From contig OY968796.1 of assembly GCA_963695545.1 (NCBI GenBank), positions 2,432,001 to 2,496,000 of the forward strand: a stretch of DNA of 64,000 nt, given 5' to 3'. The notes beneath the pieces were generated by a model. That model did no database searches. It was not told the origin of the DNA and worked only from the letters and a program-made list of their open reading frames with translations. Position 1 is the first letter of the stretch; every line of letters starts with the position of its first letter. Source of the DNA: Terriglobia bacterium (GTDB taxonomy: Bacteria; Acidobacteriota; Terriglobia; Acidiferrales; UBA7541). Below are positions 10,902 through 24,067 of this stretch, piece by piece. A program made the position numbers and the translations under genes.

Positions 10902-11846
10902 ATGCCAAATCCATCCGCATCTCGACACATCACCATCATGGGCAGCTTCGTCGCCGACCTCGCCTTTCGCACTCCGCGCATTCCCGCCTGGGGAGAAACG
11001 ATTCTCGGCGCCTCTTTCGTTCTCGGCCCCGGCGGCAAAGGATCGAATCAAGCCGTAGCCGCCGCGCGCGCCGGCGGCAGCGTCACTTTCCTCTGCAAAC
11101 TCGGCCGCGACACTTTCGGCGATCTCGCCCGCCGCACGTACACAGAAGAAGGCATCGACACCAAATTTGTTTTTGATTCGGCCGAGCAGGGAACCGGCGC
11201 CGCAGCCATCATCATCGACGAGAAGCGCGGAGAAAACGCCATCATCGTCGTTCCCGGCTCCGGCTATCACTTGACCATCGCCGAAGTCGACCAAGCCCGC
11301 GCGCGCATCGCCGAGTCCGCGATCTTCATGACCCAGCTCGAAGTCCCCGTCGCCGTCGCCGAACACGGCCTGAAACTCGCGCGCTCGCTCGGCGTCACCA
11401 CCATCCTCAATCCTGCGCCCGCCGTCCCGCTCCCCGAGCGCATTTATTCTCTCTGTGACTATCTCACTCCGAATGAAACCGAAGCCGCCGCGCTCTCGGG
11501 GCTGCCCGTCGGCAATCTCGCCGAAGCCGAGCGCGCCGCCGATGCCTTGCTCGCCCGCGGCGCTGGCAGCGTGGTCATCACGCTCGGCGCGCAAGGCGCC
11601 TTCGTGAAAAATTCCCAACTCGCGCGCCACGTCCCCGCCGTCGAATTCGGCCCGGTCGTTGAAACCACCGGCGCCGGCGACGCCTTCAGCGGCGGTTTCG
11701 CCGTAGCGCTCTCCGAAGGCGCCGACATCGCAGCCGCCGCTCGCTTCGGCTGCGCCGTCGCCGGCATTTCCGTCACGCGCCGCGGCACCGCCCCCTCCAT
11801 GCCCACCCGCGCCGAAGTCGACGCCCTCCTGAAAAAACCCAAATAG
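10902..11846 (+). CDS. rbsK: Ribokinase (PfkB family)
   Basis: GPGGKGSNQAVAAAR, LNPAPA, TPNETEA, ETTGAGDAF. Confidence 0.92.
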   Translation: MPNPSASRHITIMGSFVADLAFRTPRIPAWGETILGASFVLGPGGKGSNQAVAAARAGGSVTFLCKLGRDTFGDLARRTYTEEGIDTKFVFDSAEQGTGAAAIIIDEKRGENAIIVVPGSGYHLTIAEVDQARARIAESAIFMTQLEVPVAVAEHGLKLARSLGVTTILNPAPAVPLPERIYSLCDYLTPNETEAAALSGLPVGNLAEAERAADALLARGAGSVVITLGAQGAFVKNSQLARHVPAVEFGPVVETTGAGDAFSGGFAVALSEGADIAAAARFGCAVAGISVTRRGTAPSMPTRAEVDALLKKPK

Positions 11847-11950
11847 CGCCCGCCTCTCGCCGTGGCTTTATTTCGCGCCAGGCGGCATCCAACGGCTCGT
11901 TTCACATTGACGTGTTACGATGGCCGCCGTTGCGCGCGCACGGAGGCTCA

Positions 11951-12040
11951 ATGTCCAATTGGGGTTGGGTCTTACTAATATCGATGGTTTTCGGCGGCTG
12001 TCTATGGTTAATCGGGCTAATCAAGAAAAATAGCGGATAG
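11951..12040 (+). CDS. Unannotated 29-aa single-pass membrane peptide
   Basis: GGAGG RBS 4 nt before ATG; MSNWGWVLLISMVFGGCLWLIGLIKKNSG*; extended -10 TGtTACGAT upstream. Confidence 0.55.
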   Translation: MSNWGWVLLISMVFGGCLWLIGLIKKNSG

Positions 12041-12130
12041 CGTCATATCCAAAGAAAACTCTGGCGCCCCAAACTATCGAGGCCAGCAGCTGACGGCCGC
12101 AGCTCACACTTTCTTGCCATCACAGCCGCC

Positions 12131-12204
12131 TATGTTGCGATAAACGTGCAAACCACGGATTTGGATACCTTGCCAGATGTCCGGTAGACTGCGTTAGCCG
12201 GGAC
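12131..12204 (+). repeat. dif-like site A plus upstream accessory site
   Basis: ATGTCCGGTAG-actgcg-TTAGCCGGGAC (12177-12204); 12131-12165 matches 15411-15445 at 26/35. Confidence 0.6.
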
Positions 12205-12287
12205 TCCGATCCTACGTTTTGGCCTTCCAAAAATGCTTTTCTGACTGTCCGTCGCCGAAAGCTCAAGTGAATCGCAGCGCGCGGAAG

Positions 12288-12734
12288 CTAGTTCGATTTG
12301 ATGGTGCTCTCCACAGGTTTGACCATAGTGGCCGCCACTTCGCACTGACCATCGACCGACTTCCACACACGCAGATAGCCGGTCTGGAATGAGACGTGTT
12401 TGCCCGTTTTTTGTTCGTCGTAACTCACCTCACCCCCTCCGTATTCGTAGGCCATATCGCCGGACTGCGAAACATCAACTCGCTGTGGATGATCCGCATC
12501 AACTTCATTCTTTCTCGGTTCTTCGGCTTCCGCCTTCGCCTTAGCTTCCTCCCGCGCAGCCGCTCCGATGATCGGTTGGTCATACGCACCGGACCAAAAG
12601 AAGTTGTCGTCGGTATATTTGATCGTCTTGTTTTGAACCGCGTCGCGGATCGTCTGCTCTGAGCAAGCCGGCCCTTGGGCCATGGCCGCGATCGGAGCCG
12701 CAAGTAAGAAAACCAAGGCACAAATCGTCTTCAT
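12288..12734 (-). CDS. Secreted NTF2/SnoaL-like (DUF4440) protein
   Basis: Signal peptide; VSQSGDMAYEYG, GYLRVWK..DG. Confidence 0.8.
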   Translation of the reverse strand: MKTICALVFLLAAPIAAMAQGPACSEQTIRDAVQNKTIKYTDDNFFWSGAYDQPIIGAAAREEAKAKAEAEEPRKNEVDADHPQRVDVSQSGDMAYEYGGGEVSYDEQKTGKHVSFQTGYLRVWKSVDGQCEVAATMVKPVESTIKSN

Positions 12735-13014
12735 GCGCGTTCACCTCGCTGAGTTGGGAATAGGAAGGCCCTCTTAGATTGCAGGCTACATTACGATAGC
12801 GGCTTTTCTGCCGTCAACAGCGGCCGCGTTATGCGCGCGCCCCACGCTTGCCCGCCACGGCGGACAAAGACGGGGCCGCCGATTTCTTCTTCGCAATAAG
12901 CGCAGCGCAGCCCAACTCACCGCGCTCACTCGGCATGGCAAACCCAGTCGGGGAACAAGCCATGAAGAATGAAGCGAAGAGGCGCCGCTGCGCATCCCAT
13001 TAGCAGGCGGTTGC

Positions 13015-14382
13015 GTGCATTTCAGTCGCACCGCTGCAATCGCAACCTTGGAGACTGGCGTGGGCGCGTCTGCACCCCGCGTGGTGATCGTGGGCGGAGG
13101 TTTCGGCGGCCTGTTCGCCGCGCGCGGCCTCGCCCGCGCACCGGTCAGCGTCACGCTGATCGACAAACGAAACTATCACCTGTTTCGTCCCATGCTCTAC
13201 CAGGTTGCCACCGGCCTGCTCTCCGCTGATCAGATCTCTGGGCCGTTACGCTCGATCCTCCGCAAGCAGCGCAACGTAGAAGTGCTGCAGGATGAAGTGT
13301 CCGGAGTCGACGCGCAAAAGCGCCTGGTTCACCTGCGCGAACACGAAATTCCCTACGATTACCTTATTCTTGCCACCGGCATTCAATACAACTATTTCGG
13401 ACACAATGAATGGCAGCACGTGGCGCCCGGCCTCGAGTCGCTCGACGACGCCGACCTGATTCGCGGCAAGGTGCTCACCGCCTTCGAGCGCGCCGAGGAG
13501 ACCGCCGCGCTCGATCACACCGATACCGCGGCGATTCAGCAACTGCTCACTTTCGTGTTGGTCGGCGGCGGCACCGTGGGCGTCGAAATGGCTAGCACGC
13601 TGGCGGAAATGTCGCGCATGGCCTTGGCCCACGATTTTCGGCACATCGATCCGCGCTCCGCGCAAATTCTATTGTACGAAGCGGCGCCGCGTATCCTGCC
13701 CGCGTTTCCCGAAGTTCTTTCCGCCAAGGCGCAACGCCATCTCGAAAGCCTGGGCGTGAAGGTGTTCACGAACTCGCCGGTCACCACCGTGGATGCGGAT
13801 GGCATCGTCGCCGGCGGAAAAAGAGTCGCCGCCGGAACCGTGCTGTGGGGAGCGGGCGTCTTGGCGTCGCCGGCTGCACGCTGGTTGGGCGCCGCGATGG
13901 ACAAGTCCGGCAAAGCCATCGTCAACGCGGACATGTCCGTGCCCGGGCATCCGGAAATTTTCACTATTGGCGACACCGCCCATGTGGTTGCGCCGGCGCG
14001 CAATCTGCTGGGCTTCAAATCGAACGACGCCATGGTTATGCCCGGCGTCGCGCAGCCCGCGATTCAAGAGGGAAAATACGTGGCGCAGTTGATCCGCCGG
14101 CGCGTCGAAGGAAAGCCGGCCCCGCCGCCCTTCTGGTATTGGGATAAGGGCGACCTCGCAATTGTGGGCCGCACGTACGCGCTGGCCGATCTTCGCTTTG
14201 TGCGCTTCGCGGGATTTTCCGCGTGGATCGTCTGGGCCGTGGTACACGTCTATTTTCTGATCGGCTTCGCGAATCGTTTCTTCGTCATCTTGCAATGGGG
14301 CATTGCGTTTTTGACCAAGCGCCGCCAGGTCCGCGTCTTCACCGGCCAGGATACAGCGGCAAGAACGGCAAAATCGCCGTAG
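13015..14382 (+). CDS. ndh: Type II NADH dehydrogenase-like FAD oxidoreductase
   Basis: VIVGGGFGGL, LFRPMLYQVATG, VGGGTVGVE, IGDTA, PGVAQPAIQEG, YWDKGDLA. Confidence 0.88.
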   Translation: MHFSRTAAIATLETGVGASAPRVVIVGGGFGGLFAARGLARAPVSVTLIDKRNYHLFRPMLYQVATGLLSADQISGPLRSILRKQRNVEVLQDEVSGVDAQKRLVHLREHEIPYDYLILATGIQYNYFGHNEWQHVAPGLESLDDADLIRGKVLTAFERAEETAALDHTDTAAIQQLLTFVLVGGGTVGVEMASTLAEMSRMALAHDFRHIDPRSAQILLYEAAPRILPAFPEVLSAKAQRHLESLGVKVFTNSPVTTVDADGIVAGGKRVAAGTVLWGAGVLASPAARWLGAAMDKSGKAIVNADMSVPGHPEIFTIGDTAHVVAPARNLLGFKSNDAMVMPGVAQPAIQEGKYVAQLIRRRVEGKPAPPPFWYWDKGDLAIVGRTYALADLRFVRFAGFSAWIVWAVVHVYFLIGFANRFFVILQWGIAFLTKRRQVRVFTGQDTAARTAKSP

Positions 14383-14410
14383 CGCGAATAGAGACCAATA
14401 CCGTCTCCGC

Positions 14411-14509
14411 GTAGCACGGCTAATCCTGGCGGCGCGCCTTCGCCCTTTATCCCTTCCGCCCCAGCTCTCAAAACTCGCCCCGTGCACCGCCAAGAACGCC
14501 GTGCACCAC
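14411..14509. repeat. Degenerate inverted GTAG-type REP doublet (REPIN-like)
   Basis: GTAGCACGGCTAATCCTGGCGGCGC (14411-14435) and an inverted partner GCACCGCCAAGAACGCCGTGCACCAC (14484-14509). Confidence 0.4.
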
Positions 14510-14529
14510 CAGCTAACTCAGCGGGGCAC

Positions 14530-14557
14530 TTGCCCGGAAATCCGGCTAATCAGGAGT
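14530..14557 (+). repeat. dif-like site B
   Basis: TTGCCCGGAAA-tccggc-TAATCAGGAGT; 14527-14559 matches 15449-15481 at 28/33. Confidence 0.7.
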
Positions 14558-14565
14558 TGCAGGAC

Positions 14566-15258
14566 TTAGTGTGGAATCGACTTCCGGAGTTTGTCAGCTT
14601 GTTGTTTGAAAGACTGCAACAAGAATTGCATGGTATGGGTGAATTCCTGGGGCGTTTGACCGGTTTGCTGGGTCGCAGTCAGCGCAGTGCGAACGATATA
14701 GACCGGGCCAGAGTCAGGCTCGCCACTGAACGCCTGCTGATACTGGTTGCGGTTCCAATTCTGGTCCAGTCCCCGCTGTAATATCGCGGCAGCATCTTCA
14801 TTCTGGGAGGCGATCAGAGCGCGGTTGTTGAAGATATTGCTTGCCCATTTGGGTGGGCCAAAAGATTCGCCGTCAGCCCAGACACCTGCAACTACTTCCA
14901 CTTTGTCAGGTAGAGCGTTTCCCATCATTGGACTGAGAGGACGTAAGACCGTCTGTCCCGGTTCGATGGGAGTGTTATTGGGAGTGTTACCTTGCATCAG
15001 CGCATCCCACACTGTCGTTGTTTTCCTTGCGGCTTGCGACGCATAGGATTGTTCGAAGACGCAGGCGGTTACCGTCTTGCCAGTAAGATTCGTGACCGCG
15101 AAACTTGGTCCTTGTCCTTTTTCACCGGTGGCACGAATCTCGATTTTGAATTTAGGTCGTTCTGGTGTGGGCGATGTTCCCTGAGCTGCTGCTGAGAAAA
15201 GCATTCCCCCGCAGAGGACGCAAAAGGCCGCCGCAAACATCTTCATTGAAATCTCCAA
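14566..15258 (-). CDS. Secreted hypothetical protein (cassette cargo)
   Basis: Signal peptide (MKMFAAAFCVLCGGMLFSAAA, likely start 15246); visibly lower GC and different codon usage from neighbours; flanked by direct-repeat sites B and C. Confidence 0.75.
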   Translation of the reverse strand: MEISMKMFAAAFCVLCGGMLFSAAAQGTSPTPERPKFKIEIRATGEKGQGPSFAVTNLTGKTVTACVFEQSYASQAARKTTTVWDALMQGNTPNNTPIEPGQTVLRPLSPMMGNALPDKVEVVAGVWADGESFGPPKWASNIFNNRALIASQNEDAAAILQRGLDQNWNRNQYQQAFSGEPDSGPVYIVRTALTATQQTGQTPQEFTHTMQFLLQSFKQQADKLRKSIPH

Positions 15259-15410
15259 TAGTCAGCCAATGTGTGCATCGTTCCAGAGTTATTTCTAACA
15301 TCAACCCACCGCCCTGTAAGAGTCAGCGCCACAACGAGTGTTCCAAGCAATACCTTCCTCATGTCATTAGCGCACAACAACTCTAAAGCCGGTCGCCGCA
15401 CACGGAGCGC

Positions 15411-15479
15411 TACGTCCTGATAAACGCGGAAACCGCGCATATGGAACCCACTTCTCCGGTAATCCGACTTATCAGGAGT
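15411..15479 (+). repeat. dif-like site C plus upstream accessory site
   Basis: TTCTCCGGTAA-tccgac-TTATCAGGAGT (15452-15479); accessory CGTCCTGATAA-acgcgg (15413-15429) contains the inverted arm TCCTGATAA. Confidence 0.7.
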
Positions 15480-15634
15480 TGGCCGGACTCGGTGGGCGGG
15501 TGAGTGCGGCGGGAATCATCGGAGAAAAAACGGTCCTCCGTCAATACTGCTGTGCGCGGGCCCTCGTTAGATGGACGAATTCGAGGTGCGCCGCAACTCA
15601 TGAATGATCGCGAGGGACGTGGGGAGATGCGCTG

Positions 15635-18070
15635 TTACTCGTAGCGCAGCGCCACCATCGGATCGACGCGCGTCGCTCGCCGCGCCGGAAAATAGCACGC
15701 CGCGCATCCCACCACGATCAGCACGCCCGCCACCGCCGCCAGCGTCACCGGATCGCGCGGCGACGCGCCCGAAAGCTGACTCGCGATCACGCGGCTCAGC
15801 GCCACGCTCAGCAGCAGCCCCACGCCGACGCCTAGCGTCACCAACTGCAGCCCCATCCACATCACCATCCTTAACACGTCCGCGCGCCCCGCTCCCAGCG
15901 CCATGCGAATCCCAATCTCATGCGTCTGGCGCGAAACCGTGTACGCCGTGACGCTGTAAACTCCTAGCGACACCAGCACCAGCCCCAGCCCCGCGAAAAT
16001 TCCCATCAACACAAGTGCGAATTTCGGCCCCGCATACGCGTATTGTTCCAGAAATCCCTCAAGGCTCCCGGTGTCCGCAGTCGTCGCATTGCGATCCACC
16101 GCCCAGATCGCATCCCGCACCGGATTCACCAGAAGATTCGGATCTCTCACGGTCTTCGCCATCACCGCGCGATAAAAAGTGCCCGTGATCGTCGCCGGGA
16201 CTAGCACCTCCGCCTCGGTCGGCTCGGTCAGCGAGTCGTTTCTCACATCGCTCACCACCCCTACGATCTCGAAATTCGCATTCGGCACCGGATCCACGGG
16301 AAGCGTCTGGAGATCGTCAAGCGTAACGTCCTGGCCGATCGGGTTTTCATTTCCGAAATATTTCGTCACCAGGGTCTGATTCACCACGGCCACTTTCTGC
16401 GCGTCGTTCACTTCCTGCTCCGTCAGCAGTCGTCCGCGCAACAGCCGCATTCCCAACGTCGGGAAATAATTGGCGGTACATAGTGTAACGACGCTTCTCC
16501 AATCGTCCGAATGCACCTTGCCAGGAATATCCAGCTTGGACCCCACGCCGCCAAATGGCGGTATCGAAGTGGTTTCCGCCGTTGCCACTACGCCCGGCAG
16601 CACGTCCATCCGCGCCAGCAGCTTTGTGAAGAACAGCTGCTTCTCCGCCGCCGTCGTGTACTGCCCGCGCGGAAATGCTACGCGCGTGAACAAGATGTGA
16701 TTCGGGTCAAACCCCAAATCGACATCAACCATTTTCACAAACGCATGCATCAGTACTCCCGCGCCCGCCAGCAGCACCAGTGACAGCGCCACTTCAACAA
16801 CCACCAGCACGCTCCGAAATTTTCCGCGCCGGAATCCACCGCTCACGCCGCGTCCCGAATCTTTGAGCGGCTCAACAAAATCGCGTTTGGCCACCTGCAG
16901 CGCCGGCACCAGTCCGAACAAAACAGCGGTGAGAATCGCGGCGACCAGCGCGAACGCCAGCGCCGCCGCGTTCATTCGGATAATCGTTTCCCCCGGAATC
17001 GTGTCCACGGGCATTGCCGCCACGATCTCCGTAATTCCGCCGTATGCAAATACGCACCCCAGCGCCGCCCCACCCAGCGCCAGCAGAAAACTCTCGATCA
17101 ACAATTGCCGAATAATTCTCCATCTCCCCGCGCCCATCGCGGAGCGAATCGCCATCTCTTTTTCGCGCGCCGTCGCTTGCGCCAGCAGCATGTTCGCCAC
17201 GTTGCTGCACGCGATCAGCATCAGCAAGCCCACCGCCGCGGCCAACACGTACAGCGTCGCGCGAAAATCCCCGATGACGTTGTCGACCATCGACACCACC
17301 TGTACCCTGAAATGTTTGGGATAGCTATTCGGATATACCTGTGCTTCGTGCACGGCGATTCCATTCAATTCCGCCGCGGCTTGCTCCTTAGTGATTCCGG
17401 GCTTCAAGTGCGCTTGCAACGTAAAGCCGCGTTTCGCAAAATCCGGATCGCCGCGATTCGCATTCACCGGAATCCACAAATCCGCTCCCAGCTTCGTGAT
17501 GTGCGGCGGCATAATCCCTACCAATATCGTTGGCACGTCGTTCAACACGAAGCTTTTCCCGACGATCGATGGATCCCGTCCAAACGATTTCACCCACGTC
17601 AGGTAGCTCAACACGAATACGGGAGGCGCACCCGGCTTGACGTCGTCCGGCGTGGAGGTGCGGCCCAGCATCGCCGGAACGCCCAGAAAATCGAATGTGT
17701 TTGCGGTTACGTAGCCTCCGTCGAACTGCTCGGTTCCTTCCTTTGTCGTGTATAGGACATCGTCGTTGCCGCCTCCGATCACATCCTCGAACGAGTGGCT
17801 CTGCTCCGCGTAATCCAGAAACTCCGGACCCAGCATCCGCCGGCGCCCGCCCGTGCCCACGTCGCTCGTGTTGTGAATCTGCACCGCTACAATTCTGTCG
17901 GAGTTCTTGTAAGGAAGTGGATTGATCAGAACGTTGTCGATCACGCTGAACATCGCCGTCGAAGCGCCAATGCCCAGCGCCAGCGTCAGCACGGCAATCG
18001 CCGTGAACCGCGGCTTCTTCAGCAACATTCGTGTGGAGTAGCGGAAATCCCGCGCGAGCCCGTCGAGCAT
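15635..18070 (-). CDS. ABC permease, ADOP type (duplicated MacB/FtsX domains)
   Basis: [62 protein letters not shown]; start placed at ATG 18070. Confidence 0.92.
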
Positions 18071-18329
18071 AGGCCCTCCGTGCAACTCCCAGGAGATGCA
18101 GCGCAGCGTGTAACGTTTGCCTAAGACGTGGATGGCCGCGCGTCGCGAATCATTCCCTGCCCTGATCTCAACAACCGCGGAAACTGCGCGCAGATAATAT
18201 CAGTTCCCACCAAGCCAGTCGCGTTCTTACAATATTCGAAGGATCCGTCACTTCCCCGCACCACACCTTCCTCCTTGTTCCGCTCGATCTCTTCGCAATC
18301 GCCGGAAAAAGTGAGGTACTAGGGCCCAG

Positions 18330-18564
18330 ATGTCCGGTAATCCGGGTGGTCTCAATGGGTCGACGTAACACCAGCTCGAAGTCCGCTTGCGGGAGCCCAA
18401 AACGCCAAAGTCATTCGCGAGCGTTGAGTCAAACAAAAGCACTACCCTGTGTAGGTCTAATGAACACAAAGCCGCCAGAACAGTTCTCTTTCAGGAAGCC
18501 TTTCCAATCAATTGATTGGAGGGCGTTGCGTCGACCCGTTGAGCTGGCGCGGCTTATCGGGAGT
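18330..18564 (+). repeat. dif-like site D, interrupted by an IS30 remnant
   Basis: Left arm ATGTCCGGTAA (18330-18340) and right arm TTATCGGGAGT (18554-18564); removing the insert and one CG restores spacer TCCGGC, identical to site B. Confidence 0.7.
18345..18549 (-). mobile_element. Internally deleted IS30-family element (MITE-like, 205 bp)
   Basis: Terminal IRs CTCAATGGGTCGACGTAACACC (18351-18372) and 18522-18543, 19/22 identical; 2-bp CG duplication (18343-44, 18550-51); minus-strand decayed transposase C-terminus LTQRSRMTLAFWAPASGLRAGVTSTH* resembling IS30 LNxRPRKTLGxxTP. Confidence 0.8.
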
Positions 18565-18688
18565 TGTGGACGTGTTCGAGTTGGCCATCCACGCGAGCCC
18601 ACCGATCGCCGATCCCCAACGCGAGCTTCGAAATCGCGATTGGTTCAATTTTATTGCGGCGTGTTCAGATCGCGGGACAGCATCAATT

Positions 18689-21262
18689 TCAGCGCACTTC
18701 GATGAAGAAGCCGTCTACTCGGCGCCCGAATCCGGCGAAGTCGCCATAACTCGGGGACGTGACGTTATTGAACACGTCGTGCGGATTCTGATGATTCGTC
18801 ACGTCGACGGAAAGCACCCCGACATGCAGGATGCGGTTGTCCGGACGGCCGTGAAGCGTGAATCTACTGAGCGAGAAATCCCGATACACCTGAAAATCGA
18901 GCGAGAAGTAGTACGGGAAGCGCAGGGAGTTGGGCGTTCCCACATAATTTTGAAGAGCGTCGACCGAGGAATACGGCAACCCCGTGTGCACGTCCAGTAC
19001 CGGACAGATGGTCATCTTGAACGGCAACGCAAACGATCCAGTCGCCACCAGGCGATTGGGAACGTCCGATGGCGAAATGCCATAGGAGTTGGGGCGGATA
19101 ACCGGCTGCTCGAATGGCACGAAGATGTTCGAGAGCAGATTCAAATCACTCAGGGCGCTGCTGTGGATATAGGAAATGTCCAATTCGTCGCGCTCGGTCG
19201 GTTGGAAACGCAGCGCGGCTTCGAAGGCGTGATATCGGGCGCTCCCGGAGTACGCTAAACCCAGAAGTGACGGTCCACCGGAAGAGCCGGTGACGTCAGG
19301 CATCGGACTGACGATCGGGAGATCAGCGGTCGCACTCTGGAGATAGTTGACGCGAATTTGCAGGTTGCGCCGCAGCTCGTGGTCAAGTTCAACATTCCAG
19401 GTAACGTTGCGTGAGGCCGCGTCGAGGTCGTCGGTGGCGACGGCAAATCCACCGCCGGAGGTTTTTCGCAGATTGACGTTCTCGAAGCTGATCGGAGTGC
19501 CCGTCAATTCACCGTTCGCATCGTAGTAGCTGATCACCCTGGTGAGGTTATCGGTGAAATCCGTGGCCAGCATCGGAACGCGATCGAAGAAGACGCCGGC
19601 CCCGGCATGAATCACGGTTTTCTGTCTCTTATCGGGAGAGAAGGACAGCCCGAGGCGCGGTGCGAACGCCGCGCCTCGGCCCGCGACCTGGCTATCCAGC
19701 CGCGCGCCGAGGTCGGCTGTCACGCGGCCGCCGATCCCCCAACGATCCTCGATAAATTCGGCGACTTCGGTATCCGTGCCGCGCGTCAGCCCGGAGCCCT
19801 GGAAATTGATTTCCTCCGCGAGCGACCCATCCTCTCGAAGCATCTGAACAGGGTGGGAATGCGTAGTGCCGTCATACGCTCGACGCGATATCGCAACGCC
19901 CTGCGTAAACTCGTGATGACCGTGCCAGTTTTTCAAGGGAATCCGCAACGATGGCAACACCTGAAGCTGGTCCGTATTTCGGACCCAGGAGTTGAAATAA
20001 TTCCCGCTCCATCCCTCCGGCGTGATGAGCATGTCCGCGAGGCCCTGGCCGGCGGCGTTGGTGTTGAGGCGCGTGTATTGAATGACGGTGCGCGCCAACA
20101 TCCCAGAGGCGAACTGGTAGCTGTCTGATACGCCCGCAGAGAACCCATGCTGGCCATCGTTCGACGACGCCGTTTGGGGCACGAGCGCACCGATGCCGGC
20201 AAACTGCACGTGCTGGGAGAAGAGGTTCAAATTCAAATTCATGACGTGCCGCGAAGACAAAATTGCCTCAATGCTGGTTCTGGCGCCGGCGCCCTGTGTG
20301 ACCGTTTCGTTGTAGGGCCACGGAAGTCCGCGGACGGGCGGCCTCGTGAATGTGTAAGTGATCGCCTCCGAAAAATGAAGTTTCCCCTTCCAAAGCGGAC
20401 CGGTCAGGTAAAGCCGCGGCTCCTCGTCCTGAACACCGACGACGTGGTCGTTCTTTCCGCGGAAACCGGGAAGAAAGTTATTCAGGCCGAACTGCCAATG
20501 ATCTGCCGGCGCTTTCGTTTGGATCTCGGTCAATCCTCCGGAGAACCCGCCGAACTGGGAATCATAGGGAGCCTCCAGCACGGATAGCGTCTGGATGGCG
20601 TCGACGGAAATCGGAATGGAAAAATTTCCGGTCACCGGCTCGACATTCTCGGCGGAGTCGACCAACAACATTCCCTCGCTTTCGGGTGTCCCCTTTATGT
20701 TGAGCGTGCCATTCTGCGTTCGGACAACGCTGGGAACCAGGGGAAGGGCCGAGGTAACGCTCGGTTGTGGGAGGGGCAGGTTCACGATTTGTTGGCTGGT
20801 GACCGTGGTGGCAGTGCTCGCGTTCTCTGTGGCGATCGAGCTTGCCGTTTCTCGGACGACTGCCGTTTGAGACGTAGCGGCGAGACGCAGGCTGACATCG
20901 CGCGTCAGAATCGCGCCCTGCGTCAGGTCCACTGTCACGGTAAGAGTTTGAAAACCGGCCAGGCTTACTTCCAGCGTGTAGGTGTCACTGGGCAACCCGG
21001 CAAATCGATAGGCGCCGTCTTCGTCCGTGATCGTGGACCATCCGGGAACTCCCGCGTTCGCGGAGCTTAACCGTACCGTGGCGCCTGATAGCGGTGAAGA
21101 CTTCCCGGGATTCTCCTGGAGCGATACGCTGCCTTGGATAGAGCCGGCGTTGGATGGAGCCGCACCGCGCGCGCTTTGCGCCACGGCGCCGACGGGCGCG
21201 AGAACAATCAAAGCCGGAAGGATCAGACCGAGAGCGTCGCGTGTGTGTCCGCGAAGATTCAT
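18689..21262 (-). CDS. TonB-dependent receptor-like outer-membrane protein with N-terminal carboxypeptidase-regulatory domain
   Basis: Signal peptide; GAYRFAGLPSDTYTLEVSLAGF, FGGFSGG, FAPRLGLSF, beta-barrel-like C-terminus. Confidence 0.85.
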   Translation of the reverse strand: MNLRGHTRDALGLILPALIVLAPVGAVAQSARGAAPSNAGSIQGSVSLQENPGKSSPLSGATVRLSSANAGVPGWSTITDEDGAYRFAGLPSDTYTLEVSLAGFQTLTVTVDLTQGAILTRDVSLRLAATSQTAVVRETASSIATENASTATTVTSQQIVNLPLPQPSVTSALPLVPSVVRTQNGTLNIKGTPESEGMLLVDSAENVEPVTGNFSIPISVDAIQTLSVLEAPYDSQFGGFSGGLTEIQTKAPADHWQFGLNNFLPGFRGKNDHVVGVQDEEPRLYLTGPLWKGKLHFSEAITYTFTRPPVRGLPWPYNETVTQGAGARTSIEAILSSRHVMNLNLNLFSQHVQFAGIGALVPQTASSNDGQHGFSAGVSDSYQFASGMLARTVIQYTRLNTNAAGQGLADMLITPEGWSGNYFNSWVRNTDQLQVLPSLRIPLKNWHGHHEFTQGVAISRRAYDGTTHSHPVQMLREDGSLAEEINFQGSGLTRGTDTEVAEFIEDRWGIGGRVTADLGARLDSQVAGRGAAFAPRLGLSFSPDKRQKTVIHAGAGVFFDRVPMLATDFTDNLTRVISYYDANGELTGTPISFENVNLRKTSGGGFAVATDDLDAASRNVTWNVELDHELRRNLQIRVNYLQSATADLPIVSPMPDVTGSSGGPSLLGLAYSGSARYHAFEAALRFQPTERDELDISYIHSSALSDLNLLSNIFVPFEQPVIRPNSYGISPSDVPNRLVATGSFALPFKMTICPVLDVHTGLPYSSVDALQNYVGTPNSLRFPYYFSLDFQVYRDFSLSRFTLHGRPDNRILHVGVLSVDVTNHQNPHDVFNNVTSPSYGDFAGFGRRVDGFFIEVR

Positions 21263-21312
21263 AGGAAGGTGCAGTGTATCCGGAACGAAACCAGGATCGT
21301 ATAGATAAGAGG

Positions 21313-21615
21313 TTATCTCAGCGGCTCAATGCCCTCGCATATTTCTTCCGGCATGTTCCATCTCGAGAGGGCGACGACCTGGACGGTCCGGGAGTTCGGG
21401 CTTCCGCCGGGCGCCAGGGTCATTTCTGCTTCCACCAGGTCAGTTCGACGCAGATGGGAACGTCGTTCTTCACAGCCCTGGCCAGGAGTTCCGGCGGATC
21501 GATCTTGAAATCGGCGTGCGTTGCGAGCCGTGTCCGCCTGATACTCGGCTTCCGATGTCGCCCGCTCCAGGAAACCTTGGCTTGCTAGGTCATCTTCGAC
21601 TATTCGTAACCGCAT
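21313..21615 (-). pseudogene. Decayed OmpR-type response regulator
   Basis: MRLRIVEDDLASQGFLERATSEAEYQADTARN resembles a receiver N-terminus; a shifted frame gives DPPELLAR; the phospho-acceptor region is missing. Confidence 0.55.
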
Positions 21616-21698
21616 GAGCCTCCCCCTCGCAGGGACTCTACACCCGAACCTGGAATCTTTGTAACCGCTCAAGCGTTGGAATAACAGCGACGCAGCCA

Positions 21699-21726
21699 AC
21701 TACTGATTAGCGCGCTATTCGCACTT
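21699..21726 (-). repeat. dif-like site E (inverted relative to A-D)
   Basis: Minus strand AAGTGCGAATA-gcgcgc-TAATCAGTAGT; right arm 10/11 identical to site B. Confidence 0.5.
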
Positions 21727-21857
21727 GCCTAGCGCCGCGGCGCAGCCCGCTTCCTCTCTGATTCTTAAGTTCGCACGAGCTCACTCCCGGTCCTCCAACC
21801 GCCGAGTAACACCGAGCGCACCTCAGTTTGGGCATGCGCGGCCCCCGGCGACGAGTT

Positions 21858-22212
21858 TTCGAACAGTATACCCACAAAATAATATTGACATCCGCCAACA
21901 GTTATGCTAAAAGGTGGTGTGAAGACCGAACATCTTTTCGAATTGCCCCGTCCCCCTCCCGGATGCCGCTCCGGGGAGGTACCCAGCGCCTACTCCCGTC
22001 CCATCCCGCCGTCCCAGTCACGCAAATCTTCGCACTCATTTGCACCAAACCCACCCTCCAACCCCTTCATTTCCAGCACCTTGCAAAAGAGTGCGCAACT
22101 CATTGAAACCACTCAACATTAAGTCACTCTGTTTTCACACTCATCCGCACTCTTCTCCTGCAAGTCCTTTGTTTCCAGCTATTTCGCAAAACATACCGGG
22201 GGTGTATATACG
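21858..22212 (+). repeat. Dispersed promoter-bearing element, copy 1
   Basis: TTGACA(21885)-N17-TAAAAG-GTGGT-GTG(21919); identical 21-, 23- and 28-nt blocks shared with 57330-57653. Confidence 0.8.
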
Positions 22213-22237
22213 CAAGAGCTATAATATCGACCGGGCC

Positions 22238-24016
22238 ATGCTCCGAGCGCTTGAAATCGTAACCCAAGAAATCACCGTGCGCGGCGGCTGCGGGATATCC
22301 CTTTCAGTCGAAGTCCGGGCTGCGCGCCGCTTCGCAATTGCCTCGGGCGCCGCGATGGCTTGTGCGCTACTCGTCTCGTGCAGCGGCGGTGGCGGAACGT
22401 ACTCCGCTCCGCCCGCGCCACCTCCCCCCGCATCGATCATTCAGAGTTTCAGCGCCTCTCCAGCGACCATCACCGCTGGCCAAAGCTCCACGCTCTCCTG
22501 GACTCTCAGCGGCGCAACGTCATTCAGCCTCTCCGGCGTCACCGCCACGCCCGCAAATTCCATCACCGTCACGCCCGCCGCCACCACAACCTATACGCTC
22601 ACCGCAATCGGCCCGAGCGGCACTTTCATGCAGCCCGTCACCGTCGAAGTCACATCGGCAACCCCAATCGGTTCCGCGCAAGTTTCCACGCTCCAGCCCG
22701 GCACGGCCATCTCGCCCACTTTCCTCGGTTTTTCCCACGAATGGACCGGCGCTCCGACCCTGATGGGCTCGCCCGCCACCGGCACGAACCCCATTTATCG
22801 CCAGCTTGTAAAAAATCTATTGGCCTACGGCGGCGGACCGCTGATCGTGCGCATCGGCGGCAACAGCACGGACGAAACCGGCGCACCCGTCGCCGGCGTC
22901 GTCGCGCCCGAAGCGCAGCTTGCCACCGACATCGGCGCTAAATTCACGCTCGGCGTGAATCTAGGCTCCGACAACGTGCAACTCGCCACCAATCAAGCCG
23001 CAGCCTACATCCCCGCGATGCCTTCCGGCTCGCTGCTCGCCATCGAAATCGGAAACGAGCCGGATCTCTACGCCGGCAATGGCGATCGCGCCGCCACATA
23101 CACCGTCGCCAATTATTTCCAGGATTTCGCCACCTGGCGCGCCGCGATCGAACCGCTGCTGCCTGCGGGTGCGGGCCTCATGGGCCCGTCCTGGGCGTCC
23201 ACCAGCACGCTCACGAATTTGTCCACGTTTCTTTCGCAGGAATCGCAATACCTCGCGATCGTCAGCCAGCACTATTACGCCGGCACTTCCTGCAGCGGCA
23301 AAACCAATCCTCCGGATTTTCTCCTCGGCGCGTCGGAATCAACCTCCGGCCCCAAAGACGTCGCCTCCTACGTGCCTCTCGCGCACGCTGACAATCTTCC
23401 GTTTCGCATGGGCGAAATGAATTCCATTTCCTGCGGCGGCGAAACCGGCGTCAGCGACACCTTCGCCTCCGCGCTCTGGTCTGCCGACATCATGTTCGGC
23501 TTCGCGAGCGTCGGCGTCGACGGCGTGAATTTTCACAACGGCAACGGCGGCGCCTACGCCCTGTTTCAATTCAATATCAATACGGCCACCACGCCGTACA
23601 CCTACTCGATCGAATCCATTCGCCCCGAATATTACGGCCTGCTTTTCTTCCAGCAAGCCACGGCCCACGGCTCAAAGCTTCTTCCCGGCACGCTCACCAC
23701 TGCAGCAAACCTGAAAGTCTGGGCCACGCTGGACGACACCGGAAACGTTCGCGTCGCGCTCATCAACAAAGACGAAACCGCCACCGGCGTTGTGACCATC
23801 ACGCTCAGCGGCTACGGAAACGCCACGGTCACGCGTCTTCTCGCGCCGACCTATCAATCAACTTCCGGCATCACTCTCGGCGGCCAGACCTTCGACGGCA
23901 GCACCGACGGCACAGCGCAGGGCACCGCCTACGGTGAAATCGTCGCCCCGCAAAACGGAATTTACACCGTAGCCATCGGCCCGACGAGCGCCGCTCTCGT
24001 CACCGTGAGTCCGTAG
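22238..24016 (+). CDS. GH79 beta-glucuronidase/heparanase-like lipoprotein with N-terminal Ig-like domain
   Basis: VRIGGNSTD, IEIGNEPDLY, FRMGEMNS, SDTFASALW, GVNFH, RPEYYG; lipobox LVSC. Start uncertain; the ORF-track start at 22040 lies inside the repeat element. Confidence 0.85.
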   Translation: MLRALEIVTQEITVRGGCGISLSVEVRAARRFAIASGAAMACALLVSCSGGGGTYSAPPAPPPPASIIQSFSASPATITAGQSSTLSWTLSGATSFSLSGVTATPANSITVTPAATTTYTLTAIGPSGTFMQPVTVEVTSATPIGSAQVSTLQPGTAISPTFLGFSHEWTGAPTLMGSPATGTNPIYRQLVKNLLAYGGGPLIVRIGGNSTDETGAPVAGVVAPEAQLATDIGAKFTLGVNLGSDNVQLATNQAAAYIPAMPSGSLLAIEIGNEPDLYAGNGDRAATYTVANYFQDFATWRAAIEPLLPAGAGLMGPSWASTSTLTNLSTFLSQESQYLAIVSQHYYAGTSCSGKTNPPDFLLGASESTSGPKDVASYVPLAHADNLPFRMGEMNSISCGGETGVSDTFASALWSADIMFGFASVGVDGVNFHNGNGGAYALFQFNINTATTPYTYSIESIRPEYYGLLFFQQATAHGSKLLPGTLTTAANLKVWATLDDTGNVRVALINKDETATGVVTITLSGYGNATVTRLLAPTYQSTSGITLGGQTFDGSTDGTAQGTAYGEIVAPQNGIYTVAIGPTSAALVTVSP

Positions 24017-24067
24017 CCGTTGTCGCAAAGAAGGGTAGAAGAGGAAAGAACGATGCAGTCGCCAAGC

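Follow-up and report, generated by a model that had tools for sequence, protein, structure and literature searches.

Genes and sites of the window locus

The window, that is, the whole stretch of 64,000 nucleotides analysed, carries a variable segment that lies between a ribokinase gene and a cfa-like methyltransferase gene (11847..24067) and exceeds the span of a series of short, double-armed sites. The segment is absent in genome G003, where a 64-bp gap is found, and has another gene in its place in G004. A sequence-only reading had listed five dif-like 28-bp sites here (A to E), with 11-bp arms around a 6-bp spacer. All five quoted 28-mers lie where that reading placed them, and B, C and E are as described, but A proved decayed and D not contiguous; the list was also incomplete, overlooking an inverted site (15413-15440) and the existence of two spacer classes, alpha (NCCGAC) and beta (NCGCGT).

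The leftmost feature is a probable decayed beta-class site on the minus strand (12133..12160), the partner of A, with 75% identity over 36 nt to the region of the intact inverted site at 15410-15445 (family D10); the assignment is weak because its score lies under the model threshold. Site A (12177..12205, plus strand) combines a good left arm with a weak right arm, and is regarded as decayed since it reaches 11.0 bits solely at 7-bp spacing, versus -11.1 in the 6-bp register proposed earlier. A minus-strand cargo gene of low GC3 (12288..12734; 4th percentile) encodes a SnoaL-like DUF4440 protein (PF14534, E 1.8e-5), and its locus has no match in five congeners. The variable segment also includes an NADH dehydrogenase type 2-like gene (ndh, 13015..14382, plus strand; PF07992, PF22366), which has no clear site of its own and is absent from this locus in G003 and G004.

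Site B (14530..14557, plus strand; alpha, spacer TCCGGC, 33.9 bits) forms the left end of a gene module. The 230-aa cargo gene beside it (14566..15258, minus strand), whose stop codon lies 9 bp from B and whose GC3 falls in the 1st percentile, encodes a protein with no Pfam or NCBIfam match and recurs at 86% DNA identity in another genus, inside a different array. The module is closed by the overlooked minus-strand beta site (15413..15440; spacer CCGCGT, 22.7 bits), which an 11-bp linker (15441..15451) separates from the consensus alpha site C (15452..15479, plus strand; spacer TCCGAC, 47.6 bits), so that the back-to-back beta and alpha sites form a left-arms-inward mini-module. This composite site has no match among 72,556 plasmid records. 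Between the direct alpha sites C and D lies a minus-strand gene for an ADOP-family duplicated permease (15635..18085; TIGR03434 above cut-off). Site D is split into a left half (18330..18344; left arm and spacer bases 1-4) and a right half (18550..18564; spacer bases 3-6 and right arm), both on the plus strand, by a 205-bp IS30-family miniature element at the spacer centre (18345..18549), with the 2-bp CG duplicated. Joined, the halves score 39.5 bits, and the bracketed spacer tccggc given by the earlier reading was the correct reconstruction. A further minus-strand cargo gene (18689..21262), encoding a carboxypeptidase-regulatory-like domain and a TonB-receptor-like barrel (PF13620, PF00593), has homologues in G003 and G005 whose surroundings differ and contain no sites. 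The D module is closed by the minus-strand beta site E (21699..21726; spacer GCGCGC, 13.4 bits), whose left arm is degenerate and which ranks within the genome's 33 best positions.

The variable segment continues 2.3 kb past E, and variable segments likewise overrun the outermost sites at the moaC-moeA and leuC loci. Low GC, claimed for such segments, is seen in the region of the A gene (0.547) and in the B module (0.525) but not in the C module (0.598), the D-E module (0.590) or ndh (0.623), all close to the genome value of 0.606. Rfam yielded no match at E<=1 over positions 11500-22500 of the window.

Abundance, polarity and breakpoints of the sites

The sites are real. A model trained on 140 sites of other genomes, themselves picked with an earlier model built partly on the sites of this genome, finds 30 positions of at least 15 bits in this genome, in about 14 clusters, versus 0, 1, 0, 0 and 0 in five block shuffles, which places the motif far above background. 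The 11-6-11 geometry is borne out by 338 arm pairs at 6-bp spacing at the relatives' loci, compared with 5, 10, 5 and 1 at 4, 5, 7 and 8 bp, and the proposed intergenic placement by 23 of 24 sites of at least 20 bits, which fall outside crude gene calls covering 86% of the genome. The sites have no tie to promoters of the kind an operator would show, as 6 of 29 lie between divergent genes (495 of 2288 intergenic regions overall) and 4 between convergent genes. Site-to-gene distances vary widely. The sites occur in 11 of 24 genomes of one family versus 2 of 400 others across the phylum, whereas XerC and dif are general. Viral contigs contain no site matches, and contigs from four soil runs of one study contain no joint at sites, a result that carries no information on excision.

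An alpha site and an inverted beta site bracket one or two genes, and short linkers chain these modules with fixed polarity. In the relatives, 164 of 169 neighbours share one polarity, and 128 of the 169 pairs are inverted and of different class; in this genome, 13 of 13 classed pairs keep polarity; the linker measures 8-30 bp in 52 of the relatives' 63 left-arms-inward pairs. Arrays start with a lone alpha site and finish with a lone beta site, cargo genes point both ways (30 vs 22), and no replichore bias of polarity was evident by inspection. Symmetric sites are scarce (12 left-left and 3 right-right, vs 241 ordinary), and their rarity led us to set aside an attP x attB model.

The B module recurs in G304, a genome of another genus, with identity beginning at B's right arm. 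The equivalent site in G304 has a spacer unlike B's at 5 of 6 bases, which is unexpected under strict spacer homology. Among 47 pairs with a common right flank, mostly two ends of one module and not independent, variable right-arm bases are kept (position 19, 0.91 vs 0.45 background; position 26, 1.0 vs 0.70; position 27, 0.91 vs 0.48), while left-arm bases and spacer base 1 are not (0.34 vs 0.53). Most of the 80 metagenome homologues of the SnoaL-like gene have no nearby site, and the breakpoint count took in only those that do. Three pairs with a common left flank diverge from position 19 onward, and at two other loci the alignment with the empty allele of a congener extends into the boundary site's outer left arm. 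Together, these comparisons, which represent few independent events, suggest that crossovers map to the spacer. The earlier reading's proposal that the sites delimit mobile accessory genes gains support, as breakpoints fall inside sites in the G304 module, the same-flank pairs and the two congener loci, and modules common to several genomes switch neighbours at the spacer. The single-site empty allele that it anticipated is not found, since neither G003 nor G004 keeps a complete site at the locus of the window.

Arms, linked recombinase and IS30 elements

On a XerC-arm model built from 23 dif sites, left arms average 8.0 bits (self 12.2, background -3.7) and reversed right arms 6.6 bits, and some left arms are identical to dif arms predicted for acidobacteria in PMC3025954. 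On the XerD-arm model, the right arm averages -3.9 bits, compared with 17.7 for real dif, and its fifth base is C in 179 of 180 sites but G in 23 of 23 dif. The chromosomal dif is a separate, single-copy site near the terminus with a canonical XerD arm (G000:C1:3374100); a candidate at G000 3435670, conserved in just 3 of 31 genomes, was dropped in its favour. Judged by sequence, both arms are XerC-like and the sites are not dif or pdif sites. The sequence-only reading was correct that the arms differ from the canonical XerD arm, but taking the sites for host XerCD dif/pdif sites is not supported, given the right-arm score and the separate tyrosine recombinase family linked to the sites in relatives.

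The only close tyrosine recombinases in this genome are XerC and XerD, and a search for a third one common to site-rich genomes (30 loci, 23 proteins extracted) found only these two; the candidate came afterwards from plasmid pACIX905, in which a tyrosine recombinase gene, ACIX9_RS23090, lies between two sites and about 50 related sites occur, versus no more than 1 in any of 20 shuffles. The family comprises proteins of about 315 aa, has no family name and retains the catalytic R-K-H-R-H-Y residues. A site lies within 1.5 kb at 11 of 30 of its loci, against 0 of 30 loci of other tyrosine recombinases, and 18 of the 30 have no site under either model. Site variants track the recombinase clades, and the sister clade carries, directly upstream, one palindromic site with the same core. 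In 10 of 16 longer loci, hand-chosen partly for having sites and with three genomes giving two loci each, an inverted site stands on each side of the gene, of the same class in 9 of the 10. Mirror-image arrays flank the gene on both sides, and it stands alone between the sites rather than as one of three adjacent recombinase genes, neighbours being judged from ORF maps. Because the family is missing from this genome, from 5 of 5 congeners and from the site-rich G018 and G008, its co-occurrence with the sites is loose and the arrays of this genome look orphaned. The earlier proposal of an enzyme acting in trans is supported. Recombinase genes near sites in L044, L093 and L080 belong to other families and were treated as cargo, the second XerC of G018 has no sites nearby, and viral contigs contain no confirmed relatives. 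The linked gene could itself be mere cargo; this, the loose co-occurrence and the variable segments that overrun their outermost sites all count against the explanation favoured below. Overall, this family is the best enzyme candidate.

A 2-bp target duplication is a trait of the IS30 family. The element in D shows it in the duplicated CG and has terminal inverted repeats that match the ends of full-length, transposase-encoding elements (389-394 aa; NF033563 IS30 family, 288.6 bits, cut-off 80). Among IS30-type ends, 41 of 46 adjoin a half-site in exact register, at the spacer centre, and some elements have a beta half on one side and an alpha half on the other. No IS30 transposase is found in this genome. 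From this register, it appears that an IS30 subfamily is a parasite of the sites.

A probable module-exchange system and its relation to known systems

We consider it probable, at roughly 70%, that the sites are the recombination sites of an Acidobacteriota gene-module exchange system with its own tyrosine recombinase. A single enzyme of about 315 aa would bind both similar arms, and crossover would occur within the spacer between sites of the same class only (alpha x alpha, beta x beta), the first spacer base being free. Direct same-class sites would recombine to release a circle made up of a gene module and a linker, which could re-enter at any same-class site, and one module could be swapped by two successive crossovers with incoming DNA. 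An inverted pair around a gene would neither invert nor lose it, because alpha and beta do not match. New loci were probably seeded at host pseudo-sites supplying the left arm. Where present, the recombinase gene would be enclosed by an inverted pair of same-class sites, with the array on one side mirroring that on the other, and the orphan arrays of this genome, including those of the window, would stay put until the enzyme arrives from outside, on a conjugative plasmid for instance.

The same module system might instead be run by host XerC, acting alone on two XerC-like arms or paired with XerD, which would use a degenerate arm with the help of an activator as in TLC phage attP, with the linked recombinase as cargo. 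The arm scores, the dif-like left arms and the presence of only XerC and XerD as close recombinases favour this reading, and PMC9226527 describes non-canonical XerD arms recombined with XafT. We nevertheless regard it as rather unlikely, because the right arm departs from the XerD model at the fifth base, crucial according to the same paper, the sites are mostly confined to one family whereas dif is general, the pACIX905 variant alters inner bases that are fixed in dif, and site variants track the linked recombinase. Far less probable is an integron reading, in which beta site, linker and alpha site, back to back, would make up an attC-like hairpin and the clusters would be CALINs. At 65-90 bp, the composite forms an imperfect palindrome with outer ends similar to the R'' and R' boxes; at C it can fold, with energies of -12.7 and -13.5 kcal/mol computed for the composite alone. 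Gene ends often lie 10-50 bp from a site, and in a few copies of one module similarity stops exactly at the GTT. Against this, cargo genes lie in both directions, arrays open with a lone alpha and close with a lone beta, and the linked recombinase reaches only 34-43 bits on TIGR02249 (cut-off 265), at its C-terminal end only. An integron integrase was found in 0 of 41 genomes in a search run without a positive control, and crossover at the spacer rather than the outer GTT already contradicts the integron reading.

The exact register of the IS30 ends and the elements joining beta to alpha halves could also mean that the sites are preferred targets or remnants of the IS30 subfamily, with modules moving as IS30 composite units. 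This is very improbable, because most sites are intact and IS-free, this genome has no transposase, and the two classes, the polarity rule and crossover at intact sites would all go unexplained. Equally little weight falls on REP/BIME-like repeats spread by a RAYT transposase, or on a transcription-factor operator, as suggested by palindromic, intergenic, paired sites and by the genome's six Y1_Tnp genes. The 30 sites all lie away from these six loci, the promoter counts and variable gene distances do not fit, and neither operators nor REPs would couple class to orientation or exchange flanks at the spacer; spacer crossovers, polarity and promoter counts thus appear largely to refute this reading.

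Under the favoured module-exchange reading, the system may, as a tentative proposal to which we give slightly less than even odds, represent a third cassette platform beside integrons and dif modules, with a dedicated tyrosine recombinase, two non-interchangeable spacer classes acting as natural recombinase-mediated cassette exchange, mirror-image arrays around a recombinase gene that can flip, arrays left orphaned throughout soil Acidobacteriota and an IS30 parasite of its own. The literature searched, with most subscription papers outside it, contains no account of this system or of IS30 targeting such sites. Acidobacteriota rank with the most abundant bacteria of soils, and their accessory-gene gain is poorly known. 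If the reading is true, a common class of genes annotated as XerD (7989 of 8000 scored candidates at E<=1e-30, not all necessarily site-linked) would drive a module exchange network across genera, and the sites would give a handle for mining its cargo. In cultured Granulicella tundricola, pACIX905 bears the enzyme gene, about 50 sites and an IS30 relative; because a cultured host carries these, the natural heterospecific site pair with a single enzyme is directly testable and could yield a cassette-exchange tool.

Like integrons and CALINs, the system would combine its own tyrosine recombinase beside polar single-gene arrays with orphan arrays in enzyme-free genomes, but its sites are simple paired double-arm ones instead of attI/attC, its cargo points either way, its arrays flank the recombinase gene on both sides and its enzyme is not IntI. 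The R64 shufflon (Rci) and RIT elements also have element-encoded simple tyrosine recombinases on repeated short sites; RIT elements carry three adjacent recombinase genes, compared with one here. Shufflon-type inversion is not expected, because inverted pairs around cargo have mismatched spacers. Both Rci and RIT are named in PMC8138268. As described in PMC9226527, TLC phage attP and IMEX likewise have a good XerC-like arm and a partner arm off the XerD consensus; here, the sites are dispersed by the dozen, with spacers unrelated to host dif and no integration at dif. According to 10.1101/2022.12.17.520857, IS1202-family elements (ISAba32/ISAjo2 group) similarly home to recombination sites of a module system, but they insert 5-6 bp outside the XerC arm, whereas here an IS30 element splits the site by entering the spacer centre, duplicating 2 bp.

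In contrast to chromosomal dif, which is single, near the terminus and has a canonical XerD arm, 30 copies are dispersed in this genome. The Acinetobacter dif modules share 11-6-11 sites in inverted pairs around one or a few genes, two alternating module types, spacer crossover with a mismatch tolerated at the spacer base next to the left arm, and linear multi-module arrays on chromosomes and plasmids. They differ in that pdif spacers vary and modules invert, whereas only two fixed spacer classes tied to orientation occur here, so that arrays keep one polarity; in addition, one module type here is mostly an 8-30 bp linker, and a recombinase gene is linked to the sites, while dif modules encode none. 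The present system appears, from these sequence comparisons, to work like Acinetobacter dif modules but to fall outside their membership, as its sites do not match the XerD arm.

Site inventory, polarity and layout

The studied genome is a single contig (C1) of 4.16 Mb, in which the window spans 2432001-2496000. The 28-mers quoted in the sequence-only reading were found in the sequence, and the motif exceeded background genome-wide: a site model built from 140 training sites, all from other genomes but picked using a previous model to which sites of this genome had contributed, gave at least 15 bits at 30 positions in 14 clusters, compared with 0-1 in each of five shuffles. Among the five sites originally claimed (left arm 11 bp, spacer 6 bp, right arm 11 bp), B (33.9 bits), C (47.6 bits) and E (13.4 bits) stand as scored, A is decayed, and D is not a contiguous site, being interrupted by a 205-bp insertion (39.5 bits when rebuilt). 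An inverted site at 15413-15440 had been missed. The proposed intergenic position was confirmed, with 23 of 24 strong sites outside genes although the genome is 86% coding by our own crude gene calls, and the proposed low GC content held for the cargo of A and B but not for the remaining cargo.

Two spacer classes emerged although the first scan ignored spacer bases: alpha (NCCGAC; TCCGAC in 70 of 180 sites) and beta (NCGCGT; GCGCGT in 44 of 180). Modules consist of genes bracketed by an alpha site and a beta site on opposite strands, right arms inward. Back-to-back beta and alpha sites form linkers with left arms inward, and 52 of the 63 such linkers measure 8-30 bp. Relatives' loci gave 169 neighbouring pairs: 128 inverted and of different class, 36 direct and matching in class, and 5 that broke this polarity rule, which all 13 classed pairs in the studied genome kept. 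Within the window, the order is a probable decayed beta site beside the decayed A, two genes, B (alpha), a gene for 230 aa, a beta site, a linker, C (alpha), an ADOP permease gene, the split D (alpha), a TonB-like gene and E (beta). At 923544-928927 of contig C1, a stretch of 5.3 kb with catalase-peroxidase-like and MFS-like genes, as judged by sequence look, is enclosed by a pair of inverted alpha sites whose left arms face inward; elsewhere this arrangement holds the candidate recombinase gene treated below.

The insertion in D and full-length IS30-family elements have their ends in common. Among 46 IS30-type candidate ends, 41 directly adjoin a half-site, precisely in register, and none lie off register, compared with 1 in 20,000 positions in a random control; selection of the loci for sites does not account for the register. 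Related ends lie on half-sites at 2418753 and 3911962 of this genome and on plasmid pACIX905. A different dispersed repeat of about 180 bp (window 22021-22220) has 73 blastn hits in this genome and many in the compared genomes G003 and G004; a Y1_Tnp (RAYT-like) gene at 1387492 is some 400 bp away from one of the copies, and the repeat is possibly a REP-type element or MITE.

Module sharing and the inferred crossover point

At the window locus, a ribokinase gene lies only 64 bp from a cfa-like gene in G003, and a different gene separates the two in G004; no site was found at this locus in either. The B module recurs at 86% identity within a different array in a genome of another genus (G304), with identity beginning at the right arm of B, and its gene is present in 2 of 400 genomes. 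In a comparison of 304 sites, with pairs mostly from one module, 47 pairs with only the right flank in common retain the variable bases of the right arm but not the left arm or the first spacer base, and 3 pairs with only the left flank in common diverge from base 19; because of these pairs, we place the crossover in the spacer. At 2593957 and 2604678 of the studied genome, alignment with the congener's allele reaches as far as the outer left arm. Several observations count against such exchange: the spacer in G304 is unlike that of B, the window's variable segment extends 2.3 kb beyond E, and the moaC-moeA and leuC variable segments are larger than the span of their sites. A site of at least 15 bits occurs in 1 of 18 congener regions examined. 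A GH79-like gene (window 22202-24016) lies outside E and is also absent from the locus in G003 and G004.

A candidate recombinase and its rival

Our preferred reading, with a probability of roughly 0.7, is that a dedicated tyrosine recombinase (YR, about 315 aa) would recombine sites of the same class through spacer homology and would serve the orphan arrays of the studied genome in trans. The candidate was reached by tracing the IS30 partner to pACIX905 of Granulicella tundricola, a cultured host for both sites and YR gene. The first 100 of the plasmid's 115 kb hold about 50 variant sites under an iteratively trained model, whereas none of 20 shuffles gave more than 1, and the YR gene lies between two of them. 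The family is present in 33 of 251 genomes of the taxonomic family. A site lies within 1.5 kb of the gene at 11 of 30 YR family loci, in many cases 41-84 bp upstream of it or 7-56 bp downstream, versus 0 of 30 other recombinase loci of site-rich genomes. The clade beside window-type sites (support 0.99) is distinct from that beside a CATTCC/TCCCGT variant, the variant labels being assigned by hand from the site-proximity survey. In 10 of 16 longer loci of our own choice, the gene has an inverted site on either side (same class in 9 of 10), and arrays of opposite polarity extend outward from it. Site structure, polarity, module sharing and YR linkage are established at sequence level; catalysis by the YR, the formation of circles and the seeding of new loci are proposed steps. 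The protein reached no named family above cut-off, and among solved structures XerA, XerD and XerH come closest to it (E 1e-15 to 3e-6).

Other YR clades (L294, L295; also L262, L272, L277) carry a different repeated motif, core TTGCCGACYA, beside the recombinase gene and elsewhere in the locus, which suggests further site variants. At L093:1980-2825, a small FimB/FimE-like recombinase gene, apparently cargo, adjoins a beta-alpha junction.

The main rival, that host XerC(D) is the enzyme, appears unlikely. In favour of the rival, the tyrosine recombinases of the studied genome are XerD, XerC, two longer integrases and one fragment; a YR family profile search there matched XerC/XerD alone, and the family was absent from this genome, five congeners and the site-rich G018 and G008. 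Against arm models derived from 23 dif sites, with rows L099 and L104 omitted, left arms score 8.0 bits as XerC arms and reversed right arms 6.6 bits. A dif identity of the sites is nevertheless contradicted by the right arms, which score -3.9 bits as XerD arms and have C as fifth base in 179 of 180 sites versus G in 23 of 23 dif sites, and by a single-copy canonical dif elsewhere, at 3.374 Mb (dnaA, 1.364 Mb; skew extremes, 3.34-3.46 Mb). On two plasmids, a sister clade of the YR has a single palindrome with the core of these sites directly upstream, which would account for XerC-like arms in the absence of XerC. A site cluster with an IS3-like ORF pair inside it (C1, 3365689-3370271) is some 4 kb away from the true dif. 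G018 carries two XerC-like genes (L224, L220), about 71% identical.

Distribution and relation to known systems

Among loci sharing the site, 57 of 60 belong to Acidobacteriota by named record, many to Candidatus Acidiferrales; together with gene content, these records suggest the same phylum for the studied genome. The pattern was present in 11 of 24 further genomes of the family, 0 of 16 sister-family genomes and 2 of 400 genomes across the phylum; the unpublished G031 is included in the family count and in the dif and integrase surveys, and no claim depends on it. Two records named outside Acidobacteriota, one Verrucomicrobiae (L077) and one Binataceae (L045), also have these sites in complete arrays or modules, in one case together with the IS30 miniature element, which would reflect either cross-phylum transfer or binning error.

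The literature searched yielded no description of this system. The sites are real and possibly represent a distinct class of module shuffling by tyrosine recombinase. The system works like the dif modules of Acinetobacter, but its sites lack a matching XerD arm and its enzyme probably differs. It departs from integrons in its candidate enzyme, which is not IntI, and in cargo-gene orientation and crossover, whereas it resembles them in combining an enzyme with orphan arrays.
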